In this document: positions 16,101 through 43,700 of the stretch, in pieces
Numbering within the stretch: the stretch's first letter is position 1
Layout: each line of letters starts with the position of its first letter
Assembly: GCA_032718475.1 (NCBI GenBank)
Contig: JAUCBJ010006771.1
Location: forward strand, 1 to 51,014
DNA: 51,014 nucleotides
DNA from: Nemertoderma westbladi
Taxonomy: Eukaryota; Animalia; Xenacoelomorpha
Direction of reading: 5' to 3'
Translations under genes and position numbers: made by a program
The notes under the pieces: generated by a model
Databases searched by the model: none
What the model saw: only the letters and a program-made list of their open reading frames with translations
Told to the model about the DNA's origin: nothing

Positions 16101-18465
16101 TCAGTCAGTCAGTCAGTCAGTCAGTCAGTCAGTCAGTCAGTCAGTCAGTCAGTCAGTCAGTCAGTCAGTCAGTCAGTCAGTCAGTCAGTCAGTCAGTCAG
16201 TCAGTCAGTCAGTCAGTCAGTCAGTCAGTCAGTCAGTCAGTCAGTCAGTCAGTCAGTCAGTCAGTCAGTCAGTCAGTCAGTCAGTCAGTCAGTCAGTCAG
16301 TCAGTCAGTCAGTCAGTCAGTCAGTCAGTCAGTCAGTCAGTCAGTCAGTCAGTCAGTCAGTCAGTCAGTCAGTCAGTCAGTCAGTCAGTCAGTCAGTCAG
16401 TCAGTCAGTCAGTCAGTCAGTCAGTCAGTCAGTCAGTCAGTCAGTCAGTCAGTCAGTCAGTCAGTCAGTCAGTCAGTCAGTCAGTCAGTCAGTCAGTCAG
16501 TCAGTCAGTCAGTCAGTCAGTCAGTCAGTCAGTCAGTCAGTCAGTCAGTCAGTCAGTCAGTCAGTCAGTCAGTCAGTCAGTCAGTCAGTCAGTCAGTCAG
16601 TCAGTCAGTCAGTCAGTCAGTCAGTCAGTCAGTCAGTCAGTCAGTCAGTCAGTCAGTCAGTCAGTCAGTCAGTCAGTCAGTCAGTCAGTCAGTCAGTCAG
16701 TCAGTCAGTCAGTCAGTCAGTCAGTCAGTCAGTCAGTCAGTCAGTCAGTCACTCAGTCAGTCAGTCAGTCACTCAGTCAGTCAGTCACTCACTCAGTCAG
16801 TCAGTCACTCAGTCAGTCAGTCAGTCACTCACTCAGTCAGTCAGTCACTCAGTCAGTCAGTCAGTCACTCAGTCAGTCAGTCAGTCACTCACTCAGTCAG
16901 TCAGTCAGTCAGTCAGTCACTCAGTCAGTCAGTCAGTCAGTCAGTCAGTCAGTCAGTCAGTCAGTCAGTCAGTCAGTCAGTCAGTCAGTCAGTCAGTCAG
17001 TCAGTCAGTCAGTCAGTCAGTCAGTCAGTCAGTCAGTCAGTCAGTCAGTCAGTCAGTCAGTCAGTCAGTCAGTCAGTCAGTCAGTCAGTCAGTCAGTCAG
17101 TCAGTCAGTCAGTCAGTCAGTCAGTCAGTCAGTCAGTCAGTCAGTCAGTCACTCAGTCAGTCACTCAGTCAGTCAGTCAGTCAGTCAGTCAGTCAGTCAG
17201 TCAGTCAGTCAGTCAGTCAGTCAGTCAGTCAGTCAGTCAGTCAGTCAGTCAGTCAGTCAGTCAGTCAGTCAGTCAGTCAGTCAGTCAGTCAGTCAGTCAG
17301 TCAGTCAGTCAGTCAGTCAGTCACTCAGTCAGTCAGTCAGTCAGTCAGTCACTCAGTCAGTCAGTCAGTCACTCACTCAGTCAGTCAGTCACTCACTCAG
17401 TCAGTCAGTCACTCACTCAGTCAGTCACTCACTCAGTCAGTCAGTCACTCACTCAGTCAGTCACTCAGTCAGTCAGTCAGTCAGTCAGTCAGTCAGTCAG
17501 TCAGTCAGTCAGTCAGTCAGTCAGTCAGTCAGTCAGTCAGTCAGTCAGTCAGTCAGTCAGTCAGTCAGTCAGTCAGTCAGTCAGTCAGTCAGTCAGTCAG
17601 TCAGTCAGTCAGTCAGTCAGTCAGTCAGTCAGTCAGTCAGTCAGTCAGTCAGTCAGTCAGTCAGTCAGTCAGTCAGTCAGTCAGTCAGTCAGTCAGTCAG
17701 TCAGTCAGTCAGTCAGTCAGTCAGTCAGTCAGTCAGTCAGTCAGTCACTCACTCAGTCAGTCAGTCACTCACTCAGTCAGTCACTCAGTCAGTCAGTCAG
17801 TCAGTCAGTCAGTCAGTCAGTCAGTCAGTCAGTCAGTCAGTCAGTCAGTCAGTCAGTCAGTCAGTCAGTCAGTCAGTCAGTCAGTCAGTCAGTCAGTCAG
17901 TCAGTCAGTCAGTCAGTCAGTCAGTCAGTCAGTCAGTCAGTCAGTCAGTCAGTCAGTCAGTCAGTCAGTCAGTCAGTCAGTCAGTCAGTCAGTCAGTCAG
18001 TCAGTCAGTCAGTCAGTCAGTCAGTCAGTCAGTCAGTCAGTCAGTCAGTCAGTCAGTCAGTCAGTCAGTCAGTCAGTCAGTCAGTCAGTCAGTCAGTCAG
18101 TCAGTCAGTCAGTCAGTCAGTCAGTCAGTCAGTCAGTCAGTCAGTCAGTCAGTCAGTCAGTCAGTCAGTCAGTCAGTCAGTCAGTCAGTCAGTCAGTCAG
18201 TCAGTCAGTCAGTCAGTCAGTCAGTCAGTCAGTCAGTCAGTCAGTCAGTCAGTCAGTCAGTCAGTCAGTCAGTCAGTCAGTCAGTCAGTCAGTCAGTCAG
18301 TCAGTCAGTCAGTCAGTCAGTCAGTCAGTCAGTCAGTCAGTCAGTCAGTCAGTCAGTCAGTCAGTCAGTCAGTCAGTCAGTCAGTCAGTCAGTCAGTCAG
18401 TCAGCCAGCCAGCCAGCCAGCCAGTCCGTCAGCCAGCCAGCCAGCCAGTCCATCAATCAATCAGC
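10161..18465. repeat. Giant (CAGT)n tetranucleotide satellite (~8.3 kb) with variant blocks
   Basis: Pure CAGT interrupted by (GTCAGTCAA)n at ~12786-13160, GTCAG-rich variants at ~15476-15752, CACT variants at ~16750-17790 and a degenerate CAGC/CAAT right end. Confidence 0.97.
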
Positions 18466-18499
18466 CAACAATTCTTATTATTACAGTAATGAACCTCTC

Positions 18500-21400
18500 G
18501 GTTCCAACTAGTGATGGCGTCAAGGCGCCGTTAAGCTAGTCGGAAGTCGTCAATCAAATGTATGTTCCCTCAACAATGTTTACCTATGGACAGAAGGGAA
18601 GTGTTATTTACCTATGGTCAGAGAGGATTGAGTATTAAGATGTTATAACATCCGATATTTATAAACCGGTACTATACTTCATACTACATATAGATAATAG
18701 ATAATACACAAATAAACGGCACTAGCAGATAGGCCTAATCAATATACAAAGATAACAGCTACCGGTACAAAACCCAACACCAAAACCTCACAAAGACACA
18801 CCTCACACACTTCCCCCTCAAACGAAACCACTATGAACAAGTTTTACATCCTGTAAATGAACAGATCGACCATCTTGTAGAATAACCACATTTGTAAATG
18901 GCCTTCACTAACCTTTCCAGGTTTATCCCACCGAGAGTTTAACTTTTTTACTGCACCTCGTTCCCGTACCAATACCATATCGCCCACCCTTGGACACCCC
19001 ATTTCTGTCCAAGGCTCTGCCCAATCAGTAACTGGTGGATTACATATTACTCCTGTAACTTGCTGCAATGGTGATGTTCCTGTAGCGTCATGTACAACTC
19101 GATTAAGTTCATATACTGCTTTATTCAAATTATCATACCAGGGACCAGACATACATCTGAGACGGTCGTTTAAAGTTCGATGGACCCGTTCACAAATGGC
19201 ATTGCCTTGCAATACCAGCTTTATCTATTATCTGCTTAAAAACCTGACCAATGAAGTTTTGACTTCTATCAGATAGCAATACACGAGGTGGGCCAAATTT
19301 ATAAACCCAGTTGTCTAAAAACGCCGCCCCAACAGTAGCAGAGTCTGTTTTAATAAGAGGTACAGCCACAAGATATCTTGTAGCATGGTCAATTATAGTA
19401 ACACCCAACTATATCCTGAGCACTGTACAGGCAATGGGCCAACCAAATCGATTGCAACAAATTCAAAGGGCGAGAATGCAGGTGCCGTCGGAAATGTTTC
19501 TGTTCGTGGATGAAATTGCTTATAACCTTTCTGGGAAGCACATACACGACATCTATTTATAATGGATTGGATATGTTTTCGCATATCACGACACCACAAA
19601 CCAAATTGTAAAACGCTCAAACGTGTCTTCTTGACCCCAAAATGCCCAGCTTCATGATACTGTGTCAAAACATCCAAAACTTCATGAGCTGGAATCACAA
19701 CACGGTTATAATAACGAATAATGCCTCCAGCAATATAATAATTTGTAGGCAATTCTTTGTTTAGAAGTTCCATTAATGCAGGATCCTTCGACTGACACTC
19801 TTCCCAGTTTGCATCCCGTATTCCTGCTACAGTAGCATAACATCCATAAGATGACATGAACTCTGGTGCCTCAGAATTGAGGGTTGAATCTATTACTGAC
19901 CGACTTAACGCATCAGCAATTACATTTTCACAACCACGGCTTTGAATAATTTCAAATCGATAGCTAGCCAGTTTATCACGCCATCGAGCCTGTCTATCAT
20001 TATGTGTCCGACCTCGAACCATACTTAACAAAGGTTTATGGTCTGTAAATACTTGAAACTCACGACCATACACATGGATGGAACTTAAGAATTGCCCAAT
20101 GCAGCGCAAAAAATTCCCTGTTAGTCGTTGAATAATGCCTCTGTGTTATGGTCTGTAAATACTTGAAACTCACGACCATACACATGGATGGAACTTAAGA
20201 ATTGCCCAATGCAGCGCAAAAAATTCCCTGTTAGTCGTTGAATAATGCCTCTGTGTTGGAGTGAGTTTATGACTAGCAAATGCCACTGGGTGCCAATTTC
20301 CGTCGCACTCCTGCGATAACACTGCCCCTATTCCAATTGAAGATGCTTCTGTTTCCAACCGAAATGGTTTTGTAAAATCAGGGAGACATAGAACCGGATC
20401 ATTCAATACACAGTTTTTCAATTCCTGGAATGCCTGTTCGCATTCTTCTGACCATACAAACTACAGCTACTGACATAATAACACATAACTTTGCTACTGG
20501 CTGATTTTGTGCTGCATATAAAGGACTAGCAATAGAAGCATATACAGGAATGAAACGGGAGTAAAAAGAGCACATTCCAGTGAAGCTCATAACCTCTTTA
20601 GGGGTAGTTGGGCGTGGATAATTGTAAATCGCCTGAACTTTCTTTGGATCAGTACGGGTGTTTCCATCTTCAACAATAAAACCAAAAACATGAACGGACT
20701 TGCGGCCAAAATAACATTTTGCAGGGTTAAGTTTTAATTGGTCATCCCGTAATCTTATAAAAATATTTTCCAATGAAATAAAATGTTCATCTAAACTTAT
20801 ATCAGGAACGAGAATGTCATCAAGATAAGGAGGTACTTTTGCAGTAGCAATGTGTGGTTTTAATGATTGTAATGTATCTTTCAATTCACGTTGAAAGTTT
20901 GGTGGTGAGTTATTCCAACCAAATGGAAGAACAGTAAATTGCCAAAGACTATCGCCTGCTTGAAATGCTGTCTTAGGGCGAGATTCCTTTGAAATCGGCA
21001 TCTGCCAATATGCAGACTGTAGATCCAGGGTTCTAATCACTTTTGCCCCAGCCAACTGATCAAGAAGGTCATCAATACGAGGAAGAGGGTGATTATCTGG
21101 AACAGTAACCTCATTACGTTTTGCGTAATTAACACAAAAACGCTTCGTAGCATTATTTTTAGGAACCAACAATGCTGGGAAGGACCATGGTGATTTACTT
21201 GGCTCCACTTCGTTCATCCGAAGCATTTTTGTAACATGTTCCATAATTTAAGCTTTTTCTTCAGGACTGCGACGATATTGGTGAAGAAAAATAGGTGCTG
21301 CATCTCCTGTTTCGATATCGAAAGAAGCAGTAGCATGAGTTCCAATGTCTTCTTCATTTCTTGCAAAGATATCAGAATATTGCCACAATAAATCACACAA

Positions 21401-23172: not shown

Positions 23173-26100
23173 TACTACTACTACTAGGTCGAGCGAACTC
23201 GGACAGTGGAAATGAGATCCTTCCAGGCTTCCCGATTCTCCATAGTTGTCGCAATTTCGTTTCTCCCAAGTTCAGTATCCCTTTCAAGTTGATCTATATA
23301 TGTTATGGCAGGTCGTCCACGACTACGCTTTCCATGAGTTGGTTGCCAGAGAAGTAGATCTGGTATGACCTCGTCTTTACTTCGCCAGCAGTGCCCACTG
23401 AATCTTAATCTGCGTTCACGGAGGGTGGTTGATACAGGTGGTATTGTACCATAAAGCTCGGCGTTTGTCATGTGTTGTCTCCAGCTGATGTTTAGGGCTG
23501 CCCTTAGTAGTCTTGTGTAGCAACCATCAATTCGTTGTTCAAGTGATTTAGTCAGTGTCCAGGTCTCACCCCCGTATAAAAATACACTTTCCACTGTGGC
23601 TCGAAAGAACTTGGTCTTCAGGTGCCTGGAGAGATCTGATTTCCAGATGGTATCCATTTTTGATAGAGCTACCCAAGCCTTTGCTTTCCTAACTTCTATG
23701 TCCTTTTTGCTACTCTCTATCCATGATCCAAGATACTGGAAATCATCGACCTGCCTTAGTTGATTATTATCAATGGTTGTCAAGTTTCCATCAACATTAA
23801 AGGTCATGAATTCGGTCTTGGTATCATTTATATGCAATCCAACCTCCTTAGCAGCCCTCTCCACTTTATTTAGTAGAAGCTGTGCATCTGCTAGCGTATT
23901 AGAGAGCAGGGCGATGTCATCCACAAAGTCGGTGTCTGTGACTGTAGTTGCCAGATATCTACTACTTCTGCATTCTTGAAGTGTGAATCCCAGATCTTCA
24001 CCCTTTGTGGCCGTCCTCATTGCGTAATCCAGCACAATTACAAATAGTAATGGTGCTAATGTGTCACCTTGCAGTACGCCAGCCAGGATTGAGAAAAACT
24101 CAGTTTCACCATCTGGTGAGAGTACCTGCGCTTCTGTGTCACAATATAGCAATCCAATGCCAGCAACAATTACTTCTGGTATTTCATAAGCTCTTAGGAT
24201 TTCAAGCATTTTACCTCTATGGATGGAGTCGAATGCCTTCTTGAAGTCCACAAAAGTCATGACTGCGGGGAGATTCTTTGACTTAATTCCTTCAATCAGT
24301 CTCCGTAGTGCAAGTATCTGAGCTATTGTTGATCTACTTGGTCGAAATCCGTTTTGGCTCTTACGCAGTAGTTTCTCTATGTGTGGCCTAATCCTATATA
24401 GAATCATTTTATTGTATATTTTGGCAGCTACCACAAGCAGACAGATCCCACGATAGTTTGTTGGTATGCCGAGGTCTCCTTTCTTGGGGAGAGGCTTTAG
24501 TTGACCTTTAGTCCAAATTGGTGGTGGCTTTTCCCCTTTTAACATCCGGTTGCAAACATTCAATAATGGTCTATTTAGCACTCCGGTTTTCCATACCTCC
24601 ACTGGGATTTCATCTAATCCACTCGCTTTATTATTGGACATGCTTTTAATGCTTCTTTGGAGTTCGGCAGGTGTGAAGTCCCCTGTTTCTATAGGTAGTG
24701 TCTTGTCATATATTTTCCTTGTAGGGCTGACCTCGATGTTTGGTGGCTGCCCAAGCAAGTTGCTGAAGTGATTTTTCCAATTCCCAACACGTTCTTCAGG
24801 ACTATCGGCTTTGAGGCGCCCCTTTGCACAACTTTTCCGACCAGATACCTCATTTACAGTTTGCCAGGTAAGTCTTGATTGTTGCTGTATGTGAGCAGTT
24901 GTAATTGCTTCAGTTTTATCCTGTATGTACTTTTCCTGGCTGATGTTGTAGGCCAATTTAAGATCGTCCTTAGCTTTCTCAACCTTGTTAATGTTTTCGG
25001 TTGTTGGTTGTTCGGTTTTAACTTTGTAGATCTTCTCTCTTACAAGTAACCTCAGAGTTTTGCCATGGCACATACTGTTTTCGTTTAGGTTTCTGGGGGT
25101 TATGCCTCTTAGCTGATTCCTTGTGGGCTGTTATTATATTCTGGTATATTGAATCGGTGGATTGGTCTTCATCCATTGACTGAAGTGCTTCAAAGTGGTT
25201 TTGAACTTCTACTGTATAAGCATCCTTTACAGCATTGTCAGTTCTGAGTTTCTCCCAGTCATAGTTGATTTGCTTGCTTGTCCTGGGTTTGCTGGCTCTC
25301 AAACTGAGTCTGATCTCTGCAGTCACAATTCTGTGGTCCGAACCAATTAGGTTGAACGAGCTGTATGCCTCGCAGTTGATCATGCTATTTCTCCACTTTT
25401 TGTTTATAAGGATGTAATCCAGTTGTGCTTTGGTTCCATTAGGGTATTGAAAGGTCCATAGCTTCCCTTTACTCTTTTCGAATGATGTGTTTTTTGGTAT
25501 CAATTCACATTCTTCCATTAGGTCTAAGAGTAAGTACCCATTTCTGTTAGAACTGGTGTTATAGGTGTAACCCTTGATGTCTTCTGGGCCAATTTGCGCA
25601 TTCAGGTCACCAGCAATGACTTTAACATTGTGTTTCGGGATGTCCTTAATAAGTCCAGTCAGTTCTTCATAAAACTTGACTGCTTGTTCTGGCTCTGATG
25701 CATTGGTTGGACTGTAGCAACATATAACTGTTGTCTTGGGATTCCCATCAAATGTTGCGATCATAACCCTGGAATTTATAGATTCGATGTTGTTTAGGGT
25801 CTTAAGTGCAAATGGGCTTAGCAGAATTCCTACTCCACCAATTGATGCATTGGCCGAGTTTCTTACTGCTGAGCTTGTTACTAGCGTCCATCCATTTCCA
25901 ATGTCATTGTACTTCATGGCAGTGTCTTCATGACAAATCCGGTGTTCTTGGATGCAGATGATGTCGATGTTATATTCCATTGCCAGAGCGACCATGTCAC
26001 CCTGTTTGCTCTGTGTTTTCAGCGTGCGTGCGTTCATTGTAGCAATCTTTAGTGTCTTTTTACATTTCAACAGGTTGGTTCTTCTTTCTTCTCTGTCTTC

Positions 26101-26700
26101 TGTTCCAGTAGCCAATTTATCGAACCCAGCCTGGTGTACCACTGAGGGACGCGGTCCTTGTTGACCCGGGCGACGACCGAGCCGGTATTTCTCCTGGAGG
26201 GTTCTCATACTCATATCTTTCAGTTGCGGGGGTAAACCGCTTGTGGTCGCAACTCCTACAAGCGTCTTCGCAGTAGGTCGCCGTTGGTTGATTACCTTCC
26301 GCCGACCTTGTCAGCATGTCTAGCCGTTGGTTGATTACCTTCCGCCTATCCATGGCCTACAGCCCTGCTGCCGACTGTAGGGGTCCATTTGTTACACCCT
26401 GAACCAAGTGTGCCTCCTGGGTTAGGTTACCTAACACTGGTAGAGGAGCATCCAGTATAGACAGCGCGGGGCTTGTATTATCTCTAATGCAGATGCGTAT
26501 CAAGCCTTTGCCTTCAATGGTGCCCTAGGCGCTATAGCCCTCAATGACTTATTTAGTTGACGGGGCTGAACCAACCCACTCTTGATCAACTAAATAATGA
26601 ATAGGCTATGCTTATCGGGCCTGCCCTACTGGGCTGACAGCTACAGGTAGTACCACATTACTGCCATAGTTGTAGCAGGATCTGGGGACCTGACCTGACC
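23173..26700 (-). mobile_element. RTE-clade LINE
   Basis: Single APE-RT ORF; the stop codon runs straight into a (TAG)n tail at 23173-23186; C-terminal RSRGRPAITYIDQL motif. 5' boundary approximate. Confidence 0.9.
23184..26214 (-). pseudogene. RTE ORF (AP endonuclease + RT) with one frameshift near 25030
   Basis: ATMNARTL, CIQEHR, GDLNA and SDH in 25018-26214; NYRGI, VDFKKAFD, GVLQGDTLAP and FVDD in 23184-25073. Confidence 0.92.
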
Positions 26701-28758: not shown

Positions 28759-29409
28759 TAATTCTAAACGGTCCCTGGTTCGTTCCCTTTATTTCAACTT
28801 CGATGTTTTAGATTCCTTCCTTGACTTGGGTTAACTCAATTGGTGTAATCGATACGTCCATTCCTCATAGAGACCATTAAGGGGGGGGGGGGGGGGGGGG
28901 GGTATACCCCCCCTTGAACCTTTTTTTTAAATGGCTCTCAATTAGTGTTAAATGATAATATTGCTATTTAGTCATGGTCAACCACTGTATGGAAGGCCAA
29001 ATAGCCTTTATAGTAAAATTTGAAAATTTGTGGCCTCCTCCTAGCGGCTGGCGGCTGAATTAAAGATTTCACTAAAATTGCTACTAGTCCCTAAATTTTG
29101 GTGCAAATTTCTTGAAACCAACTTTTTTGGACTCAGCGTGATCGACTCTACAAAAGTTATCTTATAGAATTTTTAATTAGCCAATTTTATTTTAATTAAT
29201 TAATTTAAATAATTAATTATCATATTTTTAATTAAAAATGGCTAATTAGAAAAAATGGTAATATTTATCAAAATTCCATAAGATAACTTTTAAAGAGCTT
29301 CCAAAGCTCGTTGGAATGAGCCATAAACCAAGAAAGTTGGTTGAAAAATGACGGAGAAGTAGTAATTTGAAAATGAAAAATGTCATTCCGAGAAAATGCC
29401 CTTCAAAGT

Positions 29410-29953
29410 TGTTGTGGAGAATCTTCCTAGCCACTTTTTACTTGGAGAAAAACACTTCCTGTACGAGCCCACACTTTATACAGTGTAATAACAGTTTTAT
29501 TGTAATTATATGTTACACACAGTTATTAATTAGAGACAATCACAGAATGCAAATATTAACGAGTGGGAGACACTCGTCAGAAATAGTGTTTCCACCACGG
29601 CTATTTCTCTATCCCCGCTCTCTGGGGGGAAAGAGTCAAAACTGGGGCCATAATGGAGAAACTACTTTATCTTATCAATTATCATCTCTGCCATTCCATG
29701 TGGCGCGGGCGGTGGCATTCTGTGATTGGCTCGCTCCTTCCTACATTACAAACCCATCACCATTAACCAATAATAACATCCCTAGTACTAGTTGGGAGAT
29801 TGCCAAGATGCCCTTACTTCGATTTCCTACTTATATTATCAATATTGAATCTAAAGTCGTTATATTGAATGGGGCGAGCCTTAAGGTCCTTTACAACGTT
29901 TTGAGAGAGGATAAAACTACTTTGTTATATATATCATCATTTCTTTCGTTACA
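29410..29953 (-). repeat. BEL/Pao 3' LTR (544 bp)
   Basis: TGTTGTGG...CGTTACA; matches 44693-45239 apart from about four substitutions and one small indel region. Confidence 0.96.
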
Positions 29954-29963
29954 AACTCCCCCC
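29954..29963 (-). other. Polypurine tract
   Basis: GGGGGGAGTT on the minus strand immediately before the 3' LTR TGT. Confidence 0.85.
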
Positions 29964-30381
29964 AAAGTTAAGCTTGCTAAACTTTCAACAACAAAAAAAA
30001 CAAAGAAATTATTTTGTACCAAAACTATAAAACCACCTTATGTTAAGATCAATTAAATTTAGCAATGATTATATTAGATATACCACACAACACTATTTAT
30101 ATTTTGTTTATTTTGATCGCTTCCAGCCAGTCAACTATTCGCCAACATGGATGGTAAACTCCCATGAACATTTCTTGGGGCCCATGTCGCCTACTGGGTT
30201 CATTTTCGCTCACGCAAAATTATAAAAAACTTTTACAAAATTCAACGACCAAAAGGCTAAAGGCTTGCAGCAGTAGGACAAAACTCAGTCCAAAATAACA
30301 ACTAAAAAAAAACAACTAAAATTAACAAAGGGATTAAGTAAAGAGCTGACAACTCATCGCTGTTATCACTATTGGTGTCAT

Positions 30382-30893
30382 TTAAATTCCGTATGAGTCC
30401 GCTTTCGACAAGGTATCCTTGGCAACTTGGTCATACTCCCGCGTACCCGCTAGGCTCCACCATATATATCTGGGGACCGACGTCGGCCCCTACAGCCGCC
30501 AGGGTTATAGTCGTCAAACGGCCGTATACCCGAGTACAGGGAGCGAGGGTGTACGTATTCGCGAACTTCCAATGGAACGCGGACTCCGTAGGATTCCCGG
30601 TAATCCGCCATCTCATCCCGCGCGTATTCCACGAGCATTAAATAGTCTGTTAGTAACCCAGCGACCGAGGCACCAACACCTTCCTCTAGGTGGAACAGAC
30701 GGGTTATCGACTGCACATCCGTTTCGTGGAGTTTCGATTGGATGAATTTCTCGACGGCCAGAATGACTCCATCGCTTCCTCGTAACGCCACGATGGTGCC
30801 GTTATTCTCCACCGCTTTCTGAGCGTACTCCACTTGGAAAACTTTACCGTCCAGAGAGAACTGCGACGCAGAAAGATCGTAATCTGATCCCAT
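30382..30893 (-). pseudogene. PSMA3: Intronless 20S proteasome subunit alpha-7 (alpha type-3) homolog inside the LTR element; frameshifted and internally deleted
   Basis: YDLSASQFSLDGKVFQVEYAQKAVEN, DGVILAVEK..SKL, VGASVAGLLTD and YVH..SLYSGIRPF match the PSMA3/Pre10 signature. After a frameshift at ~30515 it continues TTITLAAVGADVGPQIYMVEPSG. A third frame gives REYDQVAKDTLSKADSYGI*, which resembles the C-terminal helix. Confidence 0.9.
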
Positions 30894-31596
30894 TAACTCA
30901 TATCATATCGTAATATAACTGGTACATAAAATCTTTACTTAATCAAAGTCTCTGACCTAATTTACAGTAATAAGTTAAAGACCTATTAATCTACATTTAT
31001 TATACACCACGTATCGGAACATTTAGTGATTAAATTAAATTTCTCGAAATATTTAAACTAATTTTAATTTATTTATGTTACTTTTTTACACACAAATATA
31101 TAAACTCATTCACAAACATAATATCCAGATCACGGATGGGAGACTTTAAGAGCCCGCTCCCCCCATGTTCCTAGGACCTCCTGGTGCCCTGTTAATTTAA
31201 CCGTTTAAAATCCCCAGGGACGTCTCCCTACTGTTTTGGGAAATTAAATAAGGTTCCTCCGTATTTCAACGGAACCATATGAATGGGTCTTATTCACACC
31301 TGCCCATAATGGCATAGTTCTGTCTGTCGTTATTGACAAAACACTTAGTTTAATTTAATTAATTAATTCATTCATCATACATTCATAATCATAAATTATT
31401 CAAATGTTATTAATATTATTTAATATCACCACTATTTATTATATTAATTTCGCATTACATCACTCAAACTCACATTCATTCTAATTTATTAATTATTATA
31501 TTTCAAAAAATATGAAATCGAGAAACATAATTTAAAAACTAGGCCTATTAATCTACTTACTAAATCCTATACCCTCCCCCCTTATGTTACGAGATT

Positions 31597-33108
31597 TTAA
31601 ATAGCTTGCTCAAGCAAGCAACATTTGTTTACTGGTCTTTTCACTGTCTTTTTACCACTGTTTACAGTTTTTAATTCGACGGTCCAGACATGGCCGTCCG
31701 ACCCTGCGAAAGTATTTATGACCCTCGCTAATTCCCAGTCGTATTTAGATAAAGTATCTTCTGTCACCAGTACGAGATCGCCTGGTTTCAAGTCACAGCG
31801 TTCTGTGCGCCATTTTTGTCTAAAGTGGAGGGTTGGGAGATATTCCGACATCCATTGTTTCCAGAATATTCGACTAATCTCTTGGACAACCTTCCACCGC
31901 TTCCTGCTATACAAATCATTCTCGTAAAACAGATTTCGGTTTATTATCTGAACTGGTTTACCCATCATCAAGTGGCTGGGTGTAAGCACTTCATAAGAAG
32001 AAGGATCGTCGGTTGTCGCGCTAAGTGGAAGTGAGTTTATAACGTTTTCAGCCTCAGCAAAAACTGTACGCATTTCATCTTCATCTATACATCTGTTTCT
32101 AGTCGAAACCTCAATAATACGTTTACAACTGCCTACCAGTCGTTCCCAAACGCCTGAAGAGTGGGGGGCATAAGGGGTATGGAAGTGCCACTCAATCTCC
32201 TTGCTGTTTGTCATAGCTCTAACTTCCGATGATCTGACAGCCTGATATAACTTTTTTAATTCCTGGCTGGCACCAACAAAGTTTGTACCATTATCGGAAC
32301 TTATTCTCTTTATGCCCCCGAACCTAGAACTAAATCGACGGAGCGCGTTTATGAATGCGCTAGCGCTAGCATCTTTAATTAACTCAAGGGCTAAAGCTCT
32401 TGTGGTATAACACACGAAGATGCCTCCCCATCTCTTCTCGTACCTCCTCCCTACTTTCACATTTATGGGACCAAACAAATCTACGCCCGCATTGGTAAAC
32501 GCTGGTTGGAATGCAGTTACTCGTCCAGGCGGTAGCGGCGACATTATTTGTTGAACTCGTTCTCTTTTAATACCCCGGCAAATCACACATTTTGCCACAT
32601 AACCTTTAATACGATGTCGCACTGCAGGTATCCAATATTTTTGACGTATTCGCGATATCGTAGCCTCCACACCACCATGTAACACCGTACAATGTGCTCC
32701 CGCTATGATTTTACCAACTATAATTGAATCCTTAGGTATTATTATGGGACTTGTTGGCACTATTCCACTGGGCGCATTTAATAGACGCGATCCTAAACAA
32801 ATTAAACCGTCCCTCATGATGGGACTGAATGTTCGTAGGTTACTGTCATGGCGTATTGTCTTTCCTGCCGTTAACAAGTTCACATCGGATTTGAAACCCT
32901 CTCTCTGGGCATGCCGCAATATTGCCCACTCTGCCCCCTTAATATCAATCACAGGCTTTGTTGAACGATCCATACGGAGACGCACCAGTGCTCGTAGGTA
33001 TGCTACGCGTTTGCAAGTTCGATACCAAGTGTCATCATAACGAAGGTCTTGTTCAGTAGGGGTAACAACATCAGTTAACATGTTGGCCATGTTAATCATG
33101 TTGGCCAT
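31597..33108 (-). CDS. BEL/Pao integrase (HHCC, DDE core, DUF5641-like C-terminus)
   Basis: AHCTVLHGG..CVIC, GVDLFGP, SDNGTNFVG, GVWERLV, FWKQWMSEYL. Frameshifted relative to RT-RH near 33100. Confidence 0.93.
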   Translation of the reverse strand: MANMINMANMLTDVVTPTEQDLRYDDTWYRTCKRVAYLRALVRLRMDRSTKPVIDIKGAEWAILRHAQREGFKSDVNLLTAGKTIRHDSNLRTFSPIMRDGLICLGSRLLNAPSGIVPTSPIIIPKDSIIVGKIIAGAHCTVLHGGVEATISRIRQKYWIPAVRHRIKGYVAKCVICRGIKRERVQQIMSPLPPGRVTAFQPAFTNAGVDLFGPINVKVGRRYEKRWGGIFVCYTTRALALELIKDASASAFINALRRFSSRFGGIKRISSDNGTNFVGASQELKKLYQAVRSSEVRAMTNSKEIEWHFHTPYAPHSSGVWERLVGSCKRIIEVSTRNRCIDEDEMRTVFAEAENVINSLPLSATTDDPSSYEVLTPSHLMMGKPVQIINRNLFYENDLYSRKRWKVVQEISRIFWKQWMSEYLPTLHFRQKWRTERCDLKPGDLVLVTEDTLSKYDWELARVINTFAGSDGHVWTVELKTVNSGKKTVKRPVNKCCLLEQAI

Positions 33109-35353
33109 TCGGCTTTGTTAGGTAAGAAAGGCGGACCATGTTGCCATAAATTCTCGTCTTTCTTGAAATGAACTCCACTAACTCCTCTGGACAACATATC
33201 TGCCGGGTTTAACTCTGTAGGGCAGTAATGCCAACCATCCAACTTAGTCGTTTCTTTAATTTCTGCTGCACGATTGGCAACAAAGGTTTTAAACCTACGT
33301 GATTCATTTTGAATATAATGGATGACAGTTGTAGAATCCGTCCAATAATGAGCAGGTCGAGGAATTTGTAATGCGAGTTTAATTTGTCGTAGTATTCGAG
33401 TCCCTAAAAGTGCTGCCATAAGCTCCAAACGTGGTGTACGAACTATTTTCAAAGGAGCAGCCCTCGCTTTACTATAAGCCAGTCTTGTATCTCGTCTTCC
33501 TTCAGTCTGGGCAAGGTATACAACAGTGCCATAACCTTCATCTGAAGCGTCGCTAAACACATGTGCCTCAATCGCTGTCATAACTCCATTAGAGAAATAT
33601 GGCCTGGGGATACTTACACGCTCCAGCTGTCGCAAACTATTTATCCACGCCTCCCATCGGGTTTGGATATATTCTGGAAGGTGATCTTCCCAAACTACCT
33701 GCAGAATGTAAACTTCTCTGAGAATCTGCCTACCAACCAGCGTAATGGGTGCGAGCAGGCCAAGTGGGTCATATATCCTCGCAATGAAGGATAAATAAGA
33801 ACGTTTGGTATGTAAAATGGTGTCAGTAGGTTCCAAGACATATTCAAAGGTATCAAGTGGCCGATTCCACAATATACCTAAAGCCCTGGACTCTCCACTG
33901 TTCGACATACCTTTAAGAATGGGTTCCCTAGACTCAACAATGCCACTGGGAAAGTCGCGGTTTTCATTGCAACCTTTTGACAGATCCTCTGATCCAATTG
34001 GACTCACAATTTGATCAGACATAACCTTCATGAAGGTTTCAGAATTTGATATGAACTTATGTAATTTGAAACCACCCTTCTGAAGGCAATCTCTCGCTCC
34101 TTTAGCCATAATTATAATTTCAGTTTCCGTATTTTTGGAAGCCATGCCATCATCGACATAAAAATCATTGGTAATCATGTCCCTCACCTCTGCCGTACAA
34201 GTATCGGCGTGATCAATGGGAACTTGTCTCATCGACATTGTAGTGGTGCAAGATGAATCTTTAGCCCCAAACATGTGCACCAGCATTTTAAAAACAGTTA
34301 CTGGTACCTTTTCATCAAGGTTGTCTTCCTCACACCAGAGGAAACGAAGGCTCTCTGTATCTTCTGGATACACCTTCACCTGGTGGAACATTGCTTCCAC
34401 GTCACACGTGAAAGCAAAAATCCCACTCCTAAATCTCAATAAAACATCAAGACCAGTATTGAAAATATTTGGCCCTTCAACTAAAAATCATTAAGACTAT
34501 GGCCTAAATAGGTCGCTGCCGCATCATTAATCAGGCGTATCTTTCCCTTCCGCTCTTCCCATACTACATGTAGAGGAAGATAATAAGTTCTAGGAGTTTC
34601 TGGTGTTCCCACTGGAACCCTTACCGCCCATCCTTTATCCAGATACTTTTCAATGACCGCCTGAATAGCTGCTTGTCGTCCTGGTATTTTATGAACCTTT
34701 TGCCTAAGTTTCCTTAATCGATTTTCTACCATCGTTCTATTGTTTATTAAAGGTTCCCCGGGATTTTTCCATAACATTTTAGTTTGATAATGACCATCGA
34801 CAAAACGAATTGAATCTTTTATAGTCTGTAAAGCTCTATTATCCTCTGGAGAGTTTGCCAAAGTTGAATCGTAAAGCCCCTCAAAATCTTGGTTGAAAAG
34901 GGATTCCAGATCTCGTTCGGTTCCAACATAATGAACTGACCCAGTCTTTATTTTATGGTGACATAGCTCGCTGTCAGAATCCACATGATTCGTTACTGCA
35001 GCTGCATTGGCTTCTTCTTTTGGCAGGGTACATTTTGGCTGAATTATTGGATCCGTTTGAGTAACAGAATTTATAGGACCCATTACCACCCATCCAAATG
35101 GTGTTCGTTCTGCTTTGGGCATATCCAGCTCACTTCCCCATCTTTCCTCAAATACTCGGTGAGCTAATAAATTATCTACCCCAATTAGTACAGTAACTTT
35201 AGGGATGTCTACAGGTGGATGTTCAAACAATATATTTTGTAAGTGCGAGTATCGTCGAACTTCTGTTTCATTAGGACTCGACCCAATAACTCCCAGATTT
35301 GGAATTACTGTTGCATTAGATACTTTCATCGAAAAACTATTTCCTTTATGTAC
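33096..35353 (-). pseudogene. BEL/Pao protease C-terminus, RT and RNase H (frameshift at ~34483)
   Basis: VLIGVD, TPFGWVVMG, SLNDF/LVEGPN, DVEAMFHQV, FYVDD, IYDPLG, FSDAS, PRLELMAA, WTDS, NPADMLSRG. Confidence 0.94.
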
Positions 35354-35824
35354 TGAGTTAAATTGATTGATTGATTGAATTTTTTCCCATATAAAAATAC
35401 ATACTGCACAATACTGAAATAATATATATAAATCACAATTTACCGGTAATTTATTTTACATTGTTTTATGTAAATTATGTAAATTAATGGATGGTAATAC
35501 ATTTGTTTGAAATTATATAATAAAATTGTCTTGCCTAGGTATCATAAATGGTCTAACTCTGTACAGTAGTTTACAATAAATCACGTGTACCGTATATACA
35601 TACATTAAACTTGAAATAAAATAAAATTTACAGTTTAAAATATATCTGTTACGTAGCTACAGTTTAAAAAGTAGTATCACATACGTACAGTAAAATTTAT
35701 TTAACAAGGTACAATAAAATACGAACACGTAGTTTAAAACTTTTCACATATTATGTATAGTAAAATTAACTCAGAGTATCAGTACGTAACTACAGTTTAA
35801 AAAGTAGTATCACATACATACAAT

Positions 35825-36145
35825 GAAATTTATTTAACAAGGTACAATAAAATTTATTTAACAAGGTACAATAAAATTTATTTAACAAGGTACAATAAAA
35901 TTTATTTAACAAGGTACAATAAAATACGAACACATAGTTTAAAATTTATCACATATGTACAGTAAAATTAACTCTGAGTCTCAGTATAATTTTATACAAT
36001 AAAACAAGGTATACAAAATAAAACAAGGTAGACAAAATAAAACAAGGTAGACATCAATAAAACAAGGTAGACAAAAATAAAACAAGGTAGACAAAATAAA
36101 ACAAGGTAGACATCAATAAAACAAGGTAGACAAAAATAAAACAAG
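35825..36145. repeat. Minisatellites in the LINE 3' UTR (AAATTTATTTAACAAGGTACAATA and AAAATAAAACAAGGTAGAC units)
   Basis: Direct periodicity. Confidence 0.85.
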
Positions 36146-36444
36146 CAGAACCTTAAAATAAAAAACAAGTAGAAAATGTGCAATATTAGATTAAAATGGA
36201 GGGATAGCCTTATGAGGTTTCACCTCGTTTCCATAAGGGTCCCTGTGCTCTATGCGGCAGACAATATTATTTGCACCAAAATTGTAATGAAAATGGAATG
36301 GCGCCAATGAAATGCTAAAAGTAACTGAAAAATACAATAAAAAATAGCAATAAATGCAATAATAAAAACACTGTAATATATAAAATATAGCCTATAAAAT
36401 AAATAATTATGAAGTTCAATAAAATACAATGTTTGTTATGTTAA

Positions 36445-39400
36445 TTAATAATCATAATAAATGTATTCATTTGCATTTTCGCTTAGCAGCTGCTGTAGGT
36501 AGTAGTCTTTGAGGTTGTGTTTGAACACTTCTAAAGTTTTCACGTTCGTTAAGCTTTGAGGCAGTTCGTTCCAAATTTTTGGGCCCAAGTAAGTGAACGC
36601 TTTCTTGCCGCAAACTGTCGTACAATGGGGGAGCGCAGCTGATGACTCAGTAGAACGCAGTGAGTGTGTTTGACAACGAAGGTTAACGAGGTCTGACATG
36701 TAATCGGGTGATATGTTGTTAACAATTTTGAACATATGTGATGCTATAACTGCCTTTATTCTTTCGTTTAGAGGGAGCCAATTTATTTCTTTGAAGTGTT
36801 GGATTCCGATATGTTCACGAGGACCGTAACCAAGGCAATATCTGACACATTTCCTCTGTAGTGCTTCCAATTGCTTACGAAGGCGTTGAGTTATGCTGTA
36901 AAACCAAGTAGATGCGGCGTAATCGATATGTGGTTGTATCAGTGTATTGCATAGCAAACGTCTTGTATAGTAGTCTAGTAATCCGCCATATCTATGTAAA
37001 AACTTCAATCTATTGTTACATTTCTTTATTACCTTTGTGGCCATCTCGGTCCCACTTAGATGTTGGTCTAGCACGGAGCCAAGGTAAGTGACCGATTTTG
37101 CATTTTTTATACGTTGCCCACCACAATAGACTTCTAGTTCAGGAGAGGAAGCTATCTTTTGGTGTGTTCCAATGAGTATGCTGTAGGTCTTATCAAAGTT
37201 TATTGTCAGTTTATTTTGTACACACCAGTCGAATACTCTGTCCATTGTTGAACTCAAACTTTTAGAAATTAATTCTGAGTCATCATTGGTTTTTATTAAG
37301 TTTGTGTCATCGGCAAAGGTTGGGTCCAGGGTGTCATCCTCTATTACCATGTGGAAGTCGTTAGTGTCTCCTTGGTACAGTAGAACTCCCAAGATAGATC
37401 CCTGGGGAACACCATTTTTAATAGGTTTAGTCTCCGATCGTGTGTTGCCAATAGCAACGAACTGTTGTCTACCAGAAAGATATGATTCGAACCAATCTTT
37501 TGTTTTATTGGTAGCGCCCATAGCCTTTAGTGTTTCTAACAATATTATATTGTGATTCACACAGTCAAAGGCTTTTCGAAAGTCTATAGTAACCATACCA
37601 GTGAGTTTGCCATTGTCCATACCATTTCTAATAGCGCTATCTACAAAGATTAATGCCGTTTCAGTTGAATATCCCTCCCGAAAGCCCGACTGAAGTTTAT
37701 TTATTAGTTTGTTATTGATATAGTGGTCTTGTAGCTGGTTAAATGCAACTCTTTCAAGTATTTTAGACATTATTGGAAGTAATGAGAGCGGGCGAAAGTT
37801 TCCTCTCTCTAGTCGCGAACCACTGCTTTTATATGCAGTCTTTACACGAGCAATCTTGTAACTTGTAGGGTACTTAGTGGTTATTATAGATTGGTTAATA
37901 ATATGCAGTAGGGGGGATATAATGACTGATAACCCATCCTTTATTATCTTTGCCGGTATCTCATCCGATCCAGTGGCTTTAGAAACATCAACCCTAGAAC
38001 ATATTTTGTAAACCTCGTCATATGTCGTAGGGTGTAATTCGAAAGAATTTTCCACAACTCCCAGTTTTTTGTAATAGTCCACCACCTTCGGAATATCGTA
38101 GTTTCCACTAGGTGGCGGCAACTTACTTACGAGCTCATCTGCTATTGTTAAAAAGTAATCATTAAAATAATTACATACATCTTCGGTGTTGCTACATATA
38201 TTTCCGTCTATTTTAAGAACGGTAGGAGTTGAGGGATCCTCTTTTATTTTTTTTGAATGGGGGCCAATGTCTTTCAATGCTTTCCAAAGTTTTTTACTGT
38301 CTTTACCAGCCAATGCAATTTTCTCTTTGATATACGCAGTCTTCTTCTTTCTAATTATAGTTGTAGTTTCATTGCGGGTTTTTTTTTAGAAGTTGTTCAT
38401 CATTATGGCTGCGTGTCTCTTGGAATCTATGGGTTTGTTTATTTCTATTAATAATGGCTTCTTTGACCTCAGTATCCACCCAGGGCTGAGAATGACATCG
38501 AACTCGATACTCGCGTTTGGGTGCTAGTTTATCTAGAGCAGTATTTAGAGCTAACGTTAAAATATTGGTTGCCTCATCCACATCGGTAGTAGTTGCTATC
38601 TTATCTATTTCTCTATTGTTATGCAATTCGAATATAAGTTTCTCAGCAGTATATTCATTATAGGATCTACACTTGATATATTTTGGTTCCTTAGGACAAC
38701 ATTTTTTACGTTTTCTAGTTGCAAACACCATGTAATGATCACTTAACGTATCCTTAATTACTCCAGAAGTAATTACCATATTTGGGTTTGAAACAAAGAT
38801 ATGGTCCAATAATGTAGCAGTTGTTGAAGTTACTCGAGTTGGCTCCCGTATTAATTGAACTATACTGTTCGACTCACAGAATTGCAATAGTTGTTTCAGG
38901 TTGTTATCGATATGTTGTATTCCTAGTGGATTTTTGACTATCTCACCCGTTAATGGATTTATCACAGACATCATATTTGTATTAGTATCACCCATTATTA
39001 TTACCTCTTTATAGCGTGATAAATCACCTGCAGTTATTTCGAGGTTTTCGAATATAGAATAGTCAGCATCGGGTCTATAAATTACTCCAATGAGTATCGG
39101 TTTCGTCTTAGGAAGGTATAATTCGCCAATTAACAGTTTAGAAGGAGTGTCATATGACTGGGGCTTCACCTCAAATGGTAAGTGTTTACGTACATAGAGT
39201 GCAACCCCCCCTCCATTCCCAGTTCTGTCTCTCCTATATATATCATATCCATCAATATTTACTTGTTGGTTTGTTATTGAGTCATCTAGTTTAGTTTCAG
39301 TTATTGCAATAACATGGATAACTGGAGGGTTCAACATTACATTTAATTCATGTACTTTATATCGTAGACTGTTTATGTTTATATGAAGAAAGTGTATTCC

Positions 39401-39499
39401 ACTCCGTTCAAAGTTTAATAGCCAGGGGTATGGGTGTGAGCCAACTGAATGTTCCTCACATGTGGTAGCGAGGCAGTAAGAAGCATCTGCAGTAGGTAG
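36445..39499 (-). pseudogene. LINE ORF2 (APE + RT) with a frameshift in an A-run near 38380
   Basis: FLHININSL, AITETKL, GDTN, LDHI, SDH; NFRPLSLL, IDFRKAFD, GVPQGSILG, FADD. Confidence 0.92.
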
Positions 39500-40558
39500 T
39501 CAATCTAGACGTTCAGCTTCGTTTCTCGTCACATCCAATCTCGTGGATTGTGATCGTTGGCGGGAGATACGTCGTTTCTGCCTAAATTGATATTCCATCT
39601 CGCGTTCAAATTTAGACAAATCTTTGTTGAAATATAATCGGTTGCTACCAACTACGAATACCTTCCGGGATATAACCTTCAATGCCTCTTCAATGGAATT
39701 AAATGTAAGAAGCAGTGGACGAGGGTTGTTATCCTGTCTTGGTTTACCTAGTCGATGGATTCCATAGTAGGGTAATCTTTCATTCAGAGACTCTTCTAGG
39801 AACTTATTATCAGCTTCACGCTGCATAGCTGTGTTACTTGCACCATCGCCAGGTACTCCATGTATAATGACATTCCGTTTCCGTTGGTCATTAAGTCGGA
39901 TTACCTTCTCTATACTGTTACTAGAGGGTTCCACCTTTTGTTGCACAATTTTCTTATTTAAGTCTTCCAAATGTTTTGCGTTGCGTTTTACAATTTCCAC
40001 CCATGTACCCCCACTATCTTCATGACCATCATTCCCGGTAGAAGGGGGAGGAAATGATGCAATGGACTCAATGTTGTCCACTTTCGATTGTAGTTTGACA
40101 TAGTTTGCGTCTACCTCATTCAAAAGTGTCTCAATTTCACAACGAAACACCGACAATTCACGTCCCACAACTAGCTTTTCCTCACCTTCTATTTCAGTTA
40201 GTGAACGAATGTTATCTTTGACGGTATTCTTTGTTGATTCTACTTCTTGGTTGAGTAGCAGGTTGTCATCCTCCAAGGTAACAATATGATTAGCTGCACA
40301 GAACCCACAAGCAAATTTTTTGGTAGCGAAATCGTTTTGTTTGGAGATCTCGACTGGTACAGAGATTTCTGTCCAAACAGATGTGCAGAAAGTGCACTCA
40401 ACACTGGTCCTTACAAACTTCTTGGGAGCAGCCGAGGGATTAAGGGTTGTCTTTTTTTGTTTATCGATTTTTCCGGTCCCGGTTGTATTGATAGAGTTGC
40501 GCCTTCCACTTCCACCTTGCGCTTGGCGACTTGAACCTTGGGATGGCGACAAATCCAT
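39500..40558 (-). CDS. LINE ORF1
   Basis: CTFC...CGFC, coiled coil, RKRNVIIHGV, RLGK..PRPLLLTF, YFNKDLS. Confidence 0.88.
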   Translation of the reverse strand: MDLSPSQGSSRQAQGGSGRRNSINTTGTGKIDKQKKTTLNPSAAPKKFVRTSVECTFCTSVWTEISVPVEISKQNDFATKKFACGFCAANHIVTLEDDNLLLNQEVESTKNTVKDNIRSLTEIEGEEKLVVGRELSVFRCEIETLLNEVDANYVKLQSKVDNIESIASFPPPSTGNDGHEDSGGTWVEIVKRNAKHLEDLNKKIVQQKVEPSSNSIEKVIRLNDQRKRNVIIHGVPGDGASNTAMQREADNKFLEESLNERLPYYGIHRLGKPRQDNNPRPLLLTFNSIEEALKVISRKVFVVGSNRLYFNKDLSKFEREMEYQFRQKRRISRQRSQSTRLDVTRNEAERLD

Positions 40559-40737
40559 TATATATATAACGGTATATAGTTAGAGATTACAACAATGGGT
40601 CTTTTCAACTTCAACTTTCATAAATAGTAAAATATTGAGTGGCAGAAATAAAATGTAATTGAAGTAATTGTGTCTGCGTGGCGAATTCATTTGAATTGTG
40701 AGATCAGAGTGAGAAATTGTGAGAAATTCATTTGAGT

Positions 40738-43700
40738 GACAGCTCACCATGGTGGCGGTTGTGTTCGTATGTTCATTTCTCAAAGTTGCTAAATCTAAAT
40801 TATATTTTTCTCCCTTAAGATTTAATCTATCACTCACTTCCTTATCAATTAGGGTCAAGGTAGATCCAAGGTCTTAAAGGGCATATGTACTTACCCCTTT
40901 GTTACCCGAACTGACATTGATGGGGACAATTTTTAAATAAACCTTTCCCAGATTTACAGTCATACAAATCCCAGAGTGAGCTGTCAAGTTATTTATTTTA
41001 GCCAGGGAATTATCCACCTTGGAAATATTATCTACATTTTGAATTCTTTCCTGTTCGGGTTTAATACTAAAGGCATCCATTCTTTGCCTCTGATACTCTA
41101 TGGGGCCACAATCCTGGGCATTGTCTCTAAAATCACTAGACCCACTCCTGCGGTATCCAGCTGCTGGGGACCTAGATAGACTGCGATTTGGAGTCCACCT
41201 TCTAGAATTCCACCGGTTGAAACAATTTCGGCCAATATGTCCAGTGGAGAGGCAAAAACGGCACAATCTGTTCTCCCTTATGTAATCCCATTGCTCATTC
41301 TCTGGTGCACTCCGCCACTGATCACACTCAACCGTCATATGAGAGTTATTGTTTGGATGAAGACGACATCGTGAGTTTAAATCACAAATATTCAAATGCG
41401 ATCTCTGGTTAGAATGTTCCGTACGAGAATTTGACGGTGATTGTTCACTACTAAATGTGACTTGTCTTTTAATAGAAGGTTTAGCGGCATTACTAAAACC
41501 ACCGGATGCTACAAACACATTGGATTTCACAGAATTTCCTTTTGATTCAAAAGCTCTCCTTGGAATATCTTCTCGGGATCTCCGATAATTTTCCTCCCTT
41601 TTGTCCACCGGTTTTACTCGATTAGTGCGAAAACGTTCCTCACTGTATATGGGATCATTCATAATCTCAGCTTGATCTTCCAAAAATTGAGCAAGTTCAA
41701 ACAACTGCGGTTCCCGGTTATACCTACTCCTAATTGTCGCCGCAGTTTTCCTCCATTTTCCCCTGGCCCAATAAGGAAGAACCTCTACTAGCTGTCGCAT
41801 ATTATTAAGTGAATTAAGTTCATGCGGCATGCTTAATTCAGTAAGGGCCACCAATGCTTTATTCACTTTATCAGAAAAATCTCTAAAATTATCTTTTGTT
41901 TTAATTTTGTTATTTTCAACAAGTCTATCGATAGTAGCCTGGACAATCAAACCCGGATTTCCATAACGCTTTTCTAAAGCGCTCCATGCTAAAGAAAATC
42001 CATCCGTCAGCCCAGCATACTGTCGAACGACTTGATGCGCCTTACCTTTGGTATAAGCCAAAAGATAATTCATCTTTCTGACCATGGAAATATTTTTATT
42101 TAATATTTCCTCGGTGTAAAGATGCCGAAACTGTATATATTCTTCCAGCTCTTCACCATCAAAGGTAAAGGGTTCTATATTTGGAAGCTCCAGTTTCATT
42201 TTAAGGGCTTCCACTACAGCGTCAATTTGATTATGGCTTGGTTCATTTAAACTGACTACCGGTACATCATTTGGCCTACCTCTACCACCATTATTTGAGT
42301 TATCCCCGGATCCTTCTCCAGGATCCCCCCAACCAGATCCTCCGTTGCCTCCGGGTTGTCCGGCGTTTCCTACATAGACCCGCCTTTCATTTTCATCTAT
42401 AACTCCAGCTCCAGGAGGTTTACTAACCCTAGGCCCATTAGGCCTACATCCCCCCAAGGTTGGATATTTTAACCCTTCAAAACTTTGACCGGTAATAGGC
42501 CTACTTATATTACTTACATTTAATGGTACTGAAAAGCCTGCCTGTTGGTCTACTGATGGCCTACCTGACATACCTGTATGTTGACTACCGGTAGGCCTAT
42601 ATATCGCAGTATTCGCGGTACCGGTAGCATCGCTAGGCCTACTGCCTACATTTATCTTCCTATCCAGGCCTACACCAACCGGTACTTCAGTACTTCATAA
42701 CTGGTTCCCAAATGCCTACTGCTACTACTGTATTGGGGTACATACCTGCCCAATGGAATAAAAGTATCTGCTAAAGGCTGAAAGGGTTTCTTCCTAACGG
42801 TACCGGTACTTTACTTGACTTAGCGCTTACCGGTACTGCTAGCCCCAGTTCTAATTTACTGCTTTCACCTTGGCCTACCACTGGTACGGGTGCAGTTATT
42901 GGTACTATATTTTGCGCAGGCCTACTTGTATCGTGATGTGCTACCGGTACCGGTGCGTTACGCGAAAATCGATTTAAACACTGAGAATCATATTGCTCAG
43001 CTTCAGATGATTGGGTTACCGGTACAGGTTCCTCACATTCACTAACCGCATCATCATATGTACTCAGGCCTACAGGGTGACGGCTATGGTCATCTACAGT
43101 ATAATACTGTACGTTTTCATAATTCCTATCGATACCTGATTTCTGATTAGGCCTACTTATTGTACTCTTTGGTCGCAATACAAAACCGTCACTGGAATTA
43201 GATCTTGGCCTAGCATTACTAGCACCTCTATCACAACCTTGCAGTTGGTTCTGTGTTTTGATTGGTTGATAAACATCTGCATTATGTAAATTATTTTCAA
43301 CTTCACCTGCCCCTTTATTTGGCGTAGTAAATGTCCTTGGAATAAATCCTACTGTACCTGGGGGATTCTCTGCTGTTATAGGGCTAATAATCTTAACTGA
43401 TGTACATGTTCGTTTATCGGGTTTGTGGTACATTGGCGTTTCATGGGTCAAGACACTGTCAATCTCTGGGATGCGGTTTACATAGGTTAATGTGTCCATA
43501 GTAACCATTTCCCTCGGTTGGGTTTGTTTACCACTACTAGTCTCGGATTGCAATTGGGATATATAATTTTCAGCCTCTATTAATTTAATTTATCTCGCTA
43601 TTTTGTCACACTCATCTTGGTCATCACGCTCTCGTCTACGTTCCTTACGTTCCCATTCTATTTTGTTTTCCCTATCTTTAAGGGCCTTTATTTTATCCTC

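Follow-up and report, generated by a model that had tools for sequence, protein, structure and literature searches.

The stretch of Nemertoderma westbladi DNA that was analyzed (GCA_032718475.1, contig JAUCBJ010006771.1; 51,014 nt, called the window below) holds a BEL/Pao LTR retrotransposon on the minus strand, running from 45239 to 29410 (15,830 nt with a LINE inside, about 10.5 kb without it) and flanked on both sides by the 5-bp TSD ACTTT (5′ side, 45240 to 45244; 3′ side, 29405 to 29409; sequence comparison). Other mobile elements were read from translations at 363 to 4435, 9284 to 10171, 18844 to 21247, and 23184 to 26310; the types there are two LINEs (one of them with a PHD-like ORF1), a gag-like frame, and gypsy-like pol pieces. 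Repeats of SQSV in all three frames point to a 4-base satellite at about 10150 to 18480 (about 8.3 kb), which yields three spurious frames of ~2,800 aa; tandem repeats of a 208-bp unit, most copies being 96 to 100% alike, fill 48436 to 51014. No host gene was seen in the translations of 1 to 42000.

The 5′ LTR (44693 to 45239; 547 nt, TG...CA) and the 3′ LTR (29410 to 29953; 544 nt, with AATAAA at 29501 to 29496 and TATAAA at 29480 to 29475) align with 538 matches, 4 mismatches, and 7 gap columns (divergence, 0.7%). The element had been described as intact-ended, which holds for its ends; behind the 5′ LTR of this decayed copy no TGG-type primer-binding site was found, and the protease region carries the LINE. 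The domain order (Pfam and motif reading) is DUF1759, CCHC, DLGST, YVDD, PF05380, PF17921, rve, and DUF5641. The gag region (40877 to 44612; DUF1759, CCHC knuckle at 41263) changes frame in this copy and is followed by the start of the aspartic protease region (40583 to 40873; DLGST motif), truncated by the LINE. The latter (about 5.3 kb, 35460 to 40780, approximate boundaries from translations and Pfam, minus strand) comprises ORF1 (39503 to 40579), an endonuclease (38372 to 39499), a reverse transcriptase (RT; 36448 to 38385), and a tandem-repeat tail; a TSD of this LINE was searched for and not found. The element’s pol continues in two frames with RT (YVDD at 34160) and Pao-type RNase H (PF05380) at 33099 to 35455, and ends with the integrase (31597 to 33117; PF17921, rve, DUF5641), which has its own stop at 31597. 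The best full-length relatives of the integrase are ~40% identical (374 matches among 7,999 candidates), too distant for testing common cargo.

Between integrase and 3′ LTR, the PPT-like tract GGGGGGAG occurs three times, directly past the integrase stop (31574 to 31581), at 31164 to 31157, and as the polypurine tract before the 3′ LTR (29956 to 29963); the whole window has five such tracts, four of them within the element. The tracts at 31581 and 31164 possibly mark earlier 3′ ends of the element and stepwise 3′ growth, to judge by sequence. AACAT stands within 2 letters before each of these two tracts, and a GC-richer island (31300 to 31120) surrounds the middle one in an otherwise AT-rich spacer. 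Neither of the spacers that flank the frame described next is LTR-like (13/200 and 144/200 shuffles reached the observed score). An antisense (plus-strand) stop-to-stop frame of 234 codons covers the 3′ LTR (29352 to 30056) and has no Pfam match.

A frame of 147 aa on the gag-pol strand (30450 to 30893, minus) lies between the integrase stop, 700 nt ahead of it, and the PPT/3′ LTR, with the second PPT-like tract upstream of it, and follows an integrase that runs complete to its own stop. As the preliminary description proposed, it is of the PSMA3 type: residues 2 to 127 match proteasome alpha-7/PSMA3 (human and mouse chains, 114 bits, E 4e-32), the best non-alpha-7 alpha chain scores 70.6 bits, which makes alpha-7 the closest among the alpha paralogues, and the Pfam matches are PF10584 and PF00227 (the latter covered at positions 2 to 103 of 189). 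Its base composition also stands out as described, with 52.9% GC and a CpG o/e of 1.33 against 29.4% and 1.03 upstream and 33.8% and 0.61 downstream, and with a GC3 of 0.565 versus 0.33 to 0.40 in gag/pol. Relative to PSMA3, the first ATG of this cargo is out of frame, five codons are missing near 30563, a frameshift falls near 30515, the C-terminal part is lost, and the last 20 of the 147 residues are out of frame. An out-of-frame PSMA3 remnant (30440 to 30515, minus strand) extends the match to about residue 157 of 254 (search over a 1.8-kb region, E 6e-4 to 8e-3). The cargo had been drawn as far as 30382; PSMA3 homology is present, and its significant part stops near 30440 (30440 to 30382, E 0.55 only). 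What is left falls short of a complete alpha-subunit fold of ~250 residues with its conserved N-terminal motif.

Ahead of the cargo frame, three short upstream frames begin with ATG at 30927, 30906, and 30901, and 30894 to 30927 (minus strand) is a weak candidate for donor 5′ flank taken along in the capture (its alignment score of 30 was reached by 0 of 48 control tiles, the best of which scored 29). On the 3′ side, an A-rich 20-mer (15 A, 30114 to 30095) may represent a signal or what decay has left of a tail. A proline kept in all 114 animal PSMA3 relatives compared is replaced in the cargo; we take its role to be in gate opening. The AlphaFold model of the unchanged 147-aa frame has a mean pLDDT of 64 (residues 110 to 129 below 50), and its top matches among known folds are alpha-7 chains (TM 0.40 by target length); the predicted product would span roughly the N-terminal half of the alpha fold and no more. 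Human alpha-7 self-assembles into heptameric rings, according to published abstracts; from the model, ring formation by a half-fold product is unlikely.

Whether this segment belongs to the family was examined in contigs of four (X1 to X4) of the six public runs listed for one organism, from three studies, X1 and X3 being one sample. Contig depth, which is not copy number and was used solely to show that cargo and integrase are repeated and travel together, was 558, 199, and 158 over the cargo and 451, 165, and 171 over the integrase in X1, X2, and X3 (cargo/integrase ratios, 1.24, 1.20, and 0.92; two studies); X4 is without depth over most of 31105 to 33300. A single X3 contig (record 20) covers 30694 to 33078 and bridges integrase and cargo. 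LTR contigs are deeper than cargo or integrase contigs, and two X1 contigs run from the LTR end (29410) into other flanks. The element itself sits within a very high-copy repeat (28900 to 29404 and beyond 45245; summed depths of thousands in X1 to X3), uninterrupted copies of which supply the empty site of the insertion; in each of the four runs, contig ends left open at 29410 continue as sequence resembling, by eye, that past the 5′ LTR.

Since the deep cargo and integrase contigs differ by 1.3 to 1.9% from the copy in the window, they represent the majority form and not this copy. Over 30530 to 30910, element-type contigs of all four runs align to the window without a gap, and the pieces listed for 30306 to 30525 (X4), 30314 to 30773 (X2), and 30348 to 30669 (X3) are likewise free of gaps. 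The preliminary description had noted frameshifts and deletions in cargo, gag, and pol of this copy, and broken frames are seen in all three; those of the cargo are not private decay, because deep contigs of all three studies have them in common. By comparison, the break in frame that separates RNase H from integrase looks private to this copy, since the deep X1 to X3 contigs differ there (joint at 33078 to 33098). The proteasome-like segment is family cargo, broken in the majority form. This agrees with the proposal of capture long before this insertion followed by propagation within the family; the check suggested alongside it, whether the frame is intact in other copies, returned majority-form contigs with the same breaks. 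A minority of intact copies may exist alongside, as contigs drop rare variants and the comparison rests on the contig pieces listed (40 of 203 difference rows, 15 of 18 joints, and 24 of 436 loose ends); no third contig type over the frame occurs among the 16 listed of 23 contigs.

Each of the DNA-like runs also contains one contig of a second PSMA3-like type (1.2 to 2.4 kb; depth, 15, 5, and 22 in X1, X2, and X3), for element-type/second-copy depth ratios of 36, 40, and 7. Over 30563 to 30894 it differs from the window at 34 to 38 of 332 nt (~89% identity) with no gaps or joints, it is intron-free over 111 codons (DNA-like contigs), and its loose ends are identical in all four runs. At codons 11 to 100 (40 of 41 difference rows; X1 and X3 used, X2 omitted for a missing row), 80 of 90 residues are identical to the cargo. 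Its identity averages 61% against 114 PSMA3 proteins of animals (all with at least 245 residues, from the best 120 of 269 relatives), which are 78% identical among themselves, and of the 38 positions at which the cargo has left the most common animal residue, it shares 29. None of the 6 sites that vary among its contigs changes an amino acid (under neutrality, P is about 0.001 or less), which marks it as a constrained gene, possibly a specialized proteasome subunit. It carries a two-residue insertion missing from the 114 relatives.

Contigs of the second copy align with only one piece of 28900 to 33300 and with none of the LTR or integrase, and their depth is equal to or lower than that of the flank contigs. 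The comparison had a floor of 80% likeness, and neutral flanks as diverged as the second copy’s silent sites would be ~70% alike; since flanks below 80% would escape comparison, the second copy may itself lie in an old element. It could be a host paralogue, the sole PSMA3 of a lineage that evolves fast, or a gene once carried by an old element. No public protein closer than 58% over at least 100 residues was found (250 alignments among 284 proteins); the best relative reached 58% among the best 120 of 269 and 54% in a set of 14, with no close one among 150 of 1,989. Related metagenome loci (n = 54) were 31 to 44% identical over long matches, and 0 of 7 viral stretches with related sequence was confirmed. 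In a tree of 50 rows (quick method), the branch of the cargo is long and no sister to it is reliable; of eight proteins looked up, only a plant alpha subunit was named. One protein (P0147) has the N-terminal part of a kinase fused to PSMA3 in one contig and is likely an assembly chimera. The find thereby exposes, in the second copy, an unusually divergent, constrained alpha-7.

Cargo and second copy are separated by 17 to 19 silent and 11 replacement differences (transitions, 22 of 30; dS, 0.33 to 0.38), and the dN/dS comparison suggested in the preliminary description gave a pairwise value of 0.14 to 0.17, with both branches mixed. Under a model of a neutral element and a frozen donor, with all 11 replacement differences put on the element branch and a dN/dS of 0.5 expected, P was 0.005 to 0.013 without transition bias (rejection), 0.03 to 0.13 with it (borderline to no rejection), and 0.11 to 0.22 counting both bias and donor polymorphism; overall, neutral decay after capture is not rejected. 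A selected phase is possible in that the model favors neutrality by assigning all replacements to the element. Among the 10 differing residues, the element alone is off the animal norm at 5 (the invariant proline among them), the second copy alone at 1, and 4 are ambiguous. Variants among element-type contigs (4 silent, 5 amino-acid-changing; P 0.14 to 0.31) are compatible with neutrality.

Most of the divergence from animal PSMA3 predates the capture, because the majority of the unusual residues are common to cargo and second copy and the second copy is itself so far from other animals. That divergence had earlier been taken as a measure of time spent in the element, a use that the shared residues do not support. 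As read from the sequences, the order of events is the split of cargo and second copy (dS as above), then the breaks, then the spread of the family (1 to 2%), and then this insertion (0.7%).

One run differs from the others in character. An X4 contig from 30184 into the 3′ LTR stops at 29462 with 23 non-genomic T (plus strand), a candidate poly(A) site 34 nt past AATAAA and 13 nt past TATAAA, in genomic sequence that is not A-rich. Another X4 contig, over 30502 to 30982, continues as 47 foreign letters exactly at an AG (30984 to 30983), a candidate splice acceptor (30982 to 30984, minus strand) 89 nt before the frame, with the three short upstream frames in between; by chance, AG is expected at about one junction in 16 to 20. 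When 30 of the 47 foreign letters were compared with the window, there were 0 matches at ≤3 mismatches (best ungapped, 19/30) and thus no donor exon in the window, and three 16-letter forms of this end were not found in the literature. It is possible that the 47-nt end is a splice donor in a leader absent here, a trans-spliced leader, or a deleted DNA derivative. X4 also inverts the depth order seen in X1 to X3, with about 1,500 to 4,500 for the second copy and 264 for element-type contigs. Together these single contigs of one study, in a run labeled “DNA?,” suggest that the library is RNA, that the message of the element is spliced and polyadenylated in the LTR, and that the second copy is well expressed.

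The explanation we lean toward is that a BEL/Pao family captured a truncated PSMA3-like segment once, from a divergent intron-free host alpha-7, and that this segment broke before the recent spread and is now a passenger. The segment inside the element, linked to the integrase in deep contigs, would be the captured piece, and the low-depth, ~89% identical copy in the same organism, with its silent-only variation, would be the host donor or its close kin. Capture may have proceeded by a reverse-transcriptase template switch or by 3′ read-through, with sequence added behind pol and none replaced. The breaks of the majority form are common to three studies; the slot may be transcribed as a spliced, LTR-polyadenylated message (one run), and any protein is predicted to be a half fold that forms no ring. 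The pairwise dN/dS speaks against the passenger reading, being below the 0.5 expected if the donor alone were constrained, and pure neutrality leaves unexplained why a useless 1.6-kb segment, possibly with a splice site, stays at full frequency.

An unlikely alternative is that the cargo was once a selected accessory gene (ORF3), a full-length divergent alpha-7 made from a spliced message and, e.g., disturbing proteasome assembly and sparing Gag-Pol, which has since been lost or truncated in the sampled subfamily. The env position with a complete pol, the candidate acceptor together with the poly(A)-like end in the LTR, the silent excess relative to the second copy, the 127 codons that remain open, and the typical origin of ORF3s from spliced messages (available text of PMC5408684) would all fit such a past, but the breaks are family-wide in deep contigs, the invariant proline is gone, three upstream ATGs stand ahead of the frame, transition bias and donor polymorphism can account for the silent excess, and no third contig type has appeared among the 16 listed of 23. 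We regard as doubtful, too, the fuller proposal in which a BEL/Pao lineage recruited a divergent alpha-7 that interfered with proteasome assembly and was expressed, in the manner of env, from a spliced message; the silent excess would record a selected phase, and the second copy would perhaps be the same gene kept by the host. If true, no earlier case of a retroelement using a proteasome subunit would exist. For the present-day family, the role as ring, scaffold, or modulator of proteolysis raised in the preliminary description is not supported, given the same breaks, lost proline, and upstream frames and the half fold.

That the second copy is an intact element-derived gene (a domesticated older cargo copy, or a sister subfamily) and the broken family its decayed relative would suit its intron-free 111 codons with the same unusual residues, the lack of reach of the comparison to flanks below 80% likeness, and the distance of the closest public protein. 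This is rather improbable given that its contigs share one piece with 28900 to 33300 and none with LTR or integrase, that its depth is at or under that of the flank contigs, and that fast-evolving intron-free proteasome retrogenes are known in hosts (available text of PMC1839131). Distinctly improbable is retention of the cargo for its RNA, whereby ~89% identity to an essential host gene would make small-RNA silencing of the element costly. The idea of a silencing cost stems from plant gene-capture work. Coding breaks are tolerated here while the segment keeps its full frequency and high CpG, and the donor is under purifying selection, as this reading would have it; one difference per ~9 letters, however, restricts cross-targeting, and no measurement here separates an RNA role from neutral carriage. 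A one-off processed pseudogene in this single element copy, for which the LINE insertion already suffered by the element and the A-rich 20-mer might be cited, is barely credible and contradicted by the data: the segment occurs in deep contigs of three studies, 1.3 to 1.9% from this copy and in one case bridging to the integrase, and it is 10 to 11% from its nearest relative, compared with 0.7% between the LTRs.

Belpaoviridae have LTRs of 0.2 to 1.2 kb, a length of 4.2 to 10 kb, and a primer-binding site for tRNA-Arg or tRNA-Gly (PMC8742986); the element agrees with them in LTR size, a nucleocapsid-bearing Gag, PR-RT-RH-IN with Pao-type domains, and a PPT before the 3′ LTR. Its layout of LTRs, PPT, gag, PR-RT-RH-IN, and an extra gene 3′ of pol is that of env-bearing Belpaoviridae as given in the available text of PMC8742986 and PMC3118150, except that the extra gene there is an envelope protein and here a fragment of a proteasome subunit. 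No proteasome-carrying retroelement was found in the published literature searched (most subscription papers and Repbase lay outside the search), in line with the preliminary description, and “proteasome” is unmentioned in the available main text of PMC5131818 and PMC3118150. A proteasome subunit as LTR-element cargo is apparently undescribed; the capture process itself is known, and on present evidence this is not a retroelement making proteasome rings.

As far as the available text of PMC5131818 goes, LTR-mediated retrocopies of animals are partial, co-transcribed, and re-amplified (a mosquito case is flanked by BEL18_AG, and maize Bs1 is cited). The cargo resembles them as a partial host gene in an LTR element, re-amplified with common differences and lesions and likely co-transcribed. 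The apparent absence of a clear poly(A) or TSD would be a further likeness; an A-rich 20-mer is visible 3′ of the cargo. In the 15 Drosophila cases of the same source, the retrocopy replaced part of the element’s ORFs, whereas here the integrase ahead of it is complete and its depth matches that of pol. The element offers an animal example of a host gene fragment behind an intact pol carried through the spread of a family. Drosophila also has testis-expressed intron-free proteasome alpha retrogenes, which, as intron-free duplicates in a host genome, are a model for the second copy (available text of PMC1839131).

Bdelloid rotifer LTR elements carry non-env ORF3s (GDSL esterase, DEDDy exonuclease), described as expressed from spliced messages (PMC5408684, available text); like the cargo, with its possible splicing, they are cell-type genes that occupy the env slot of an LTR family. 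Those ORF3s keep catalytic residues and are common to several element lineages, whereas the majority form of the cargo is broken, with a ~89% identical relative in the same organism; a functional ORF3 is an intact frame under purifying selection, and here the breaks are common to the deep contigs. A donor-like gene, a broken cargo, and a candidate spliced message within one organism make the origin of ORF3s and env-slot genes, and the persistence of useless cargo, testable at an early stage. In retroviral transduction (v-src), a host gene is added 3′ of the replication genes and is expressed from a spliced message; the cargo is alike in position and in the spliced reading, and the difference is that the gene captured there is functional and selected.
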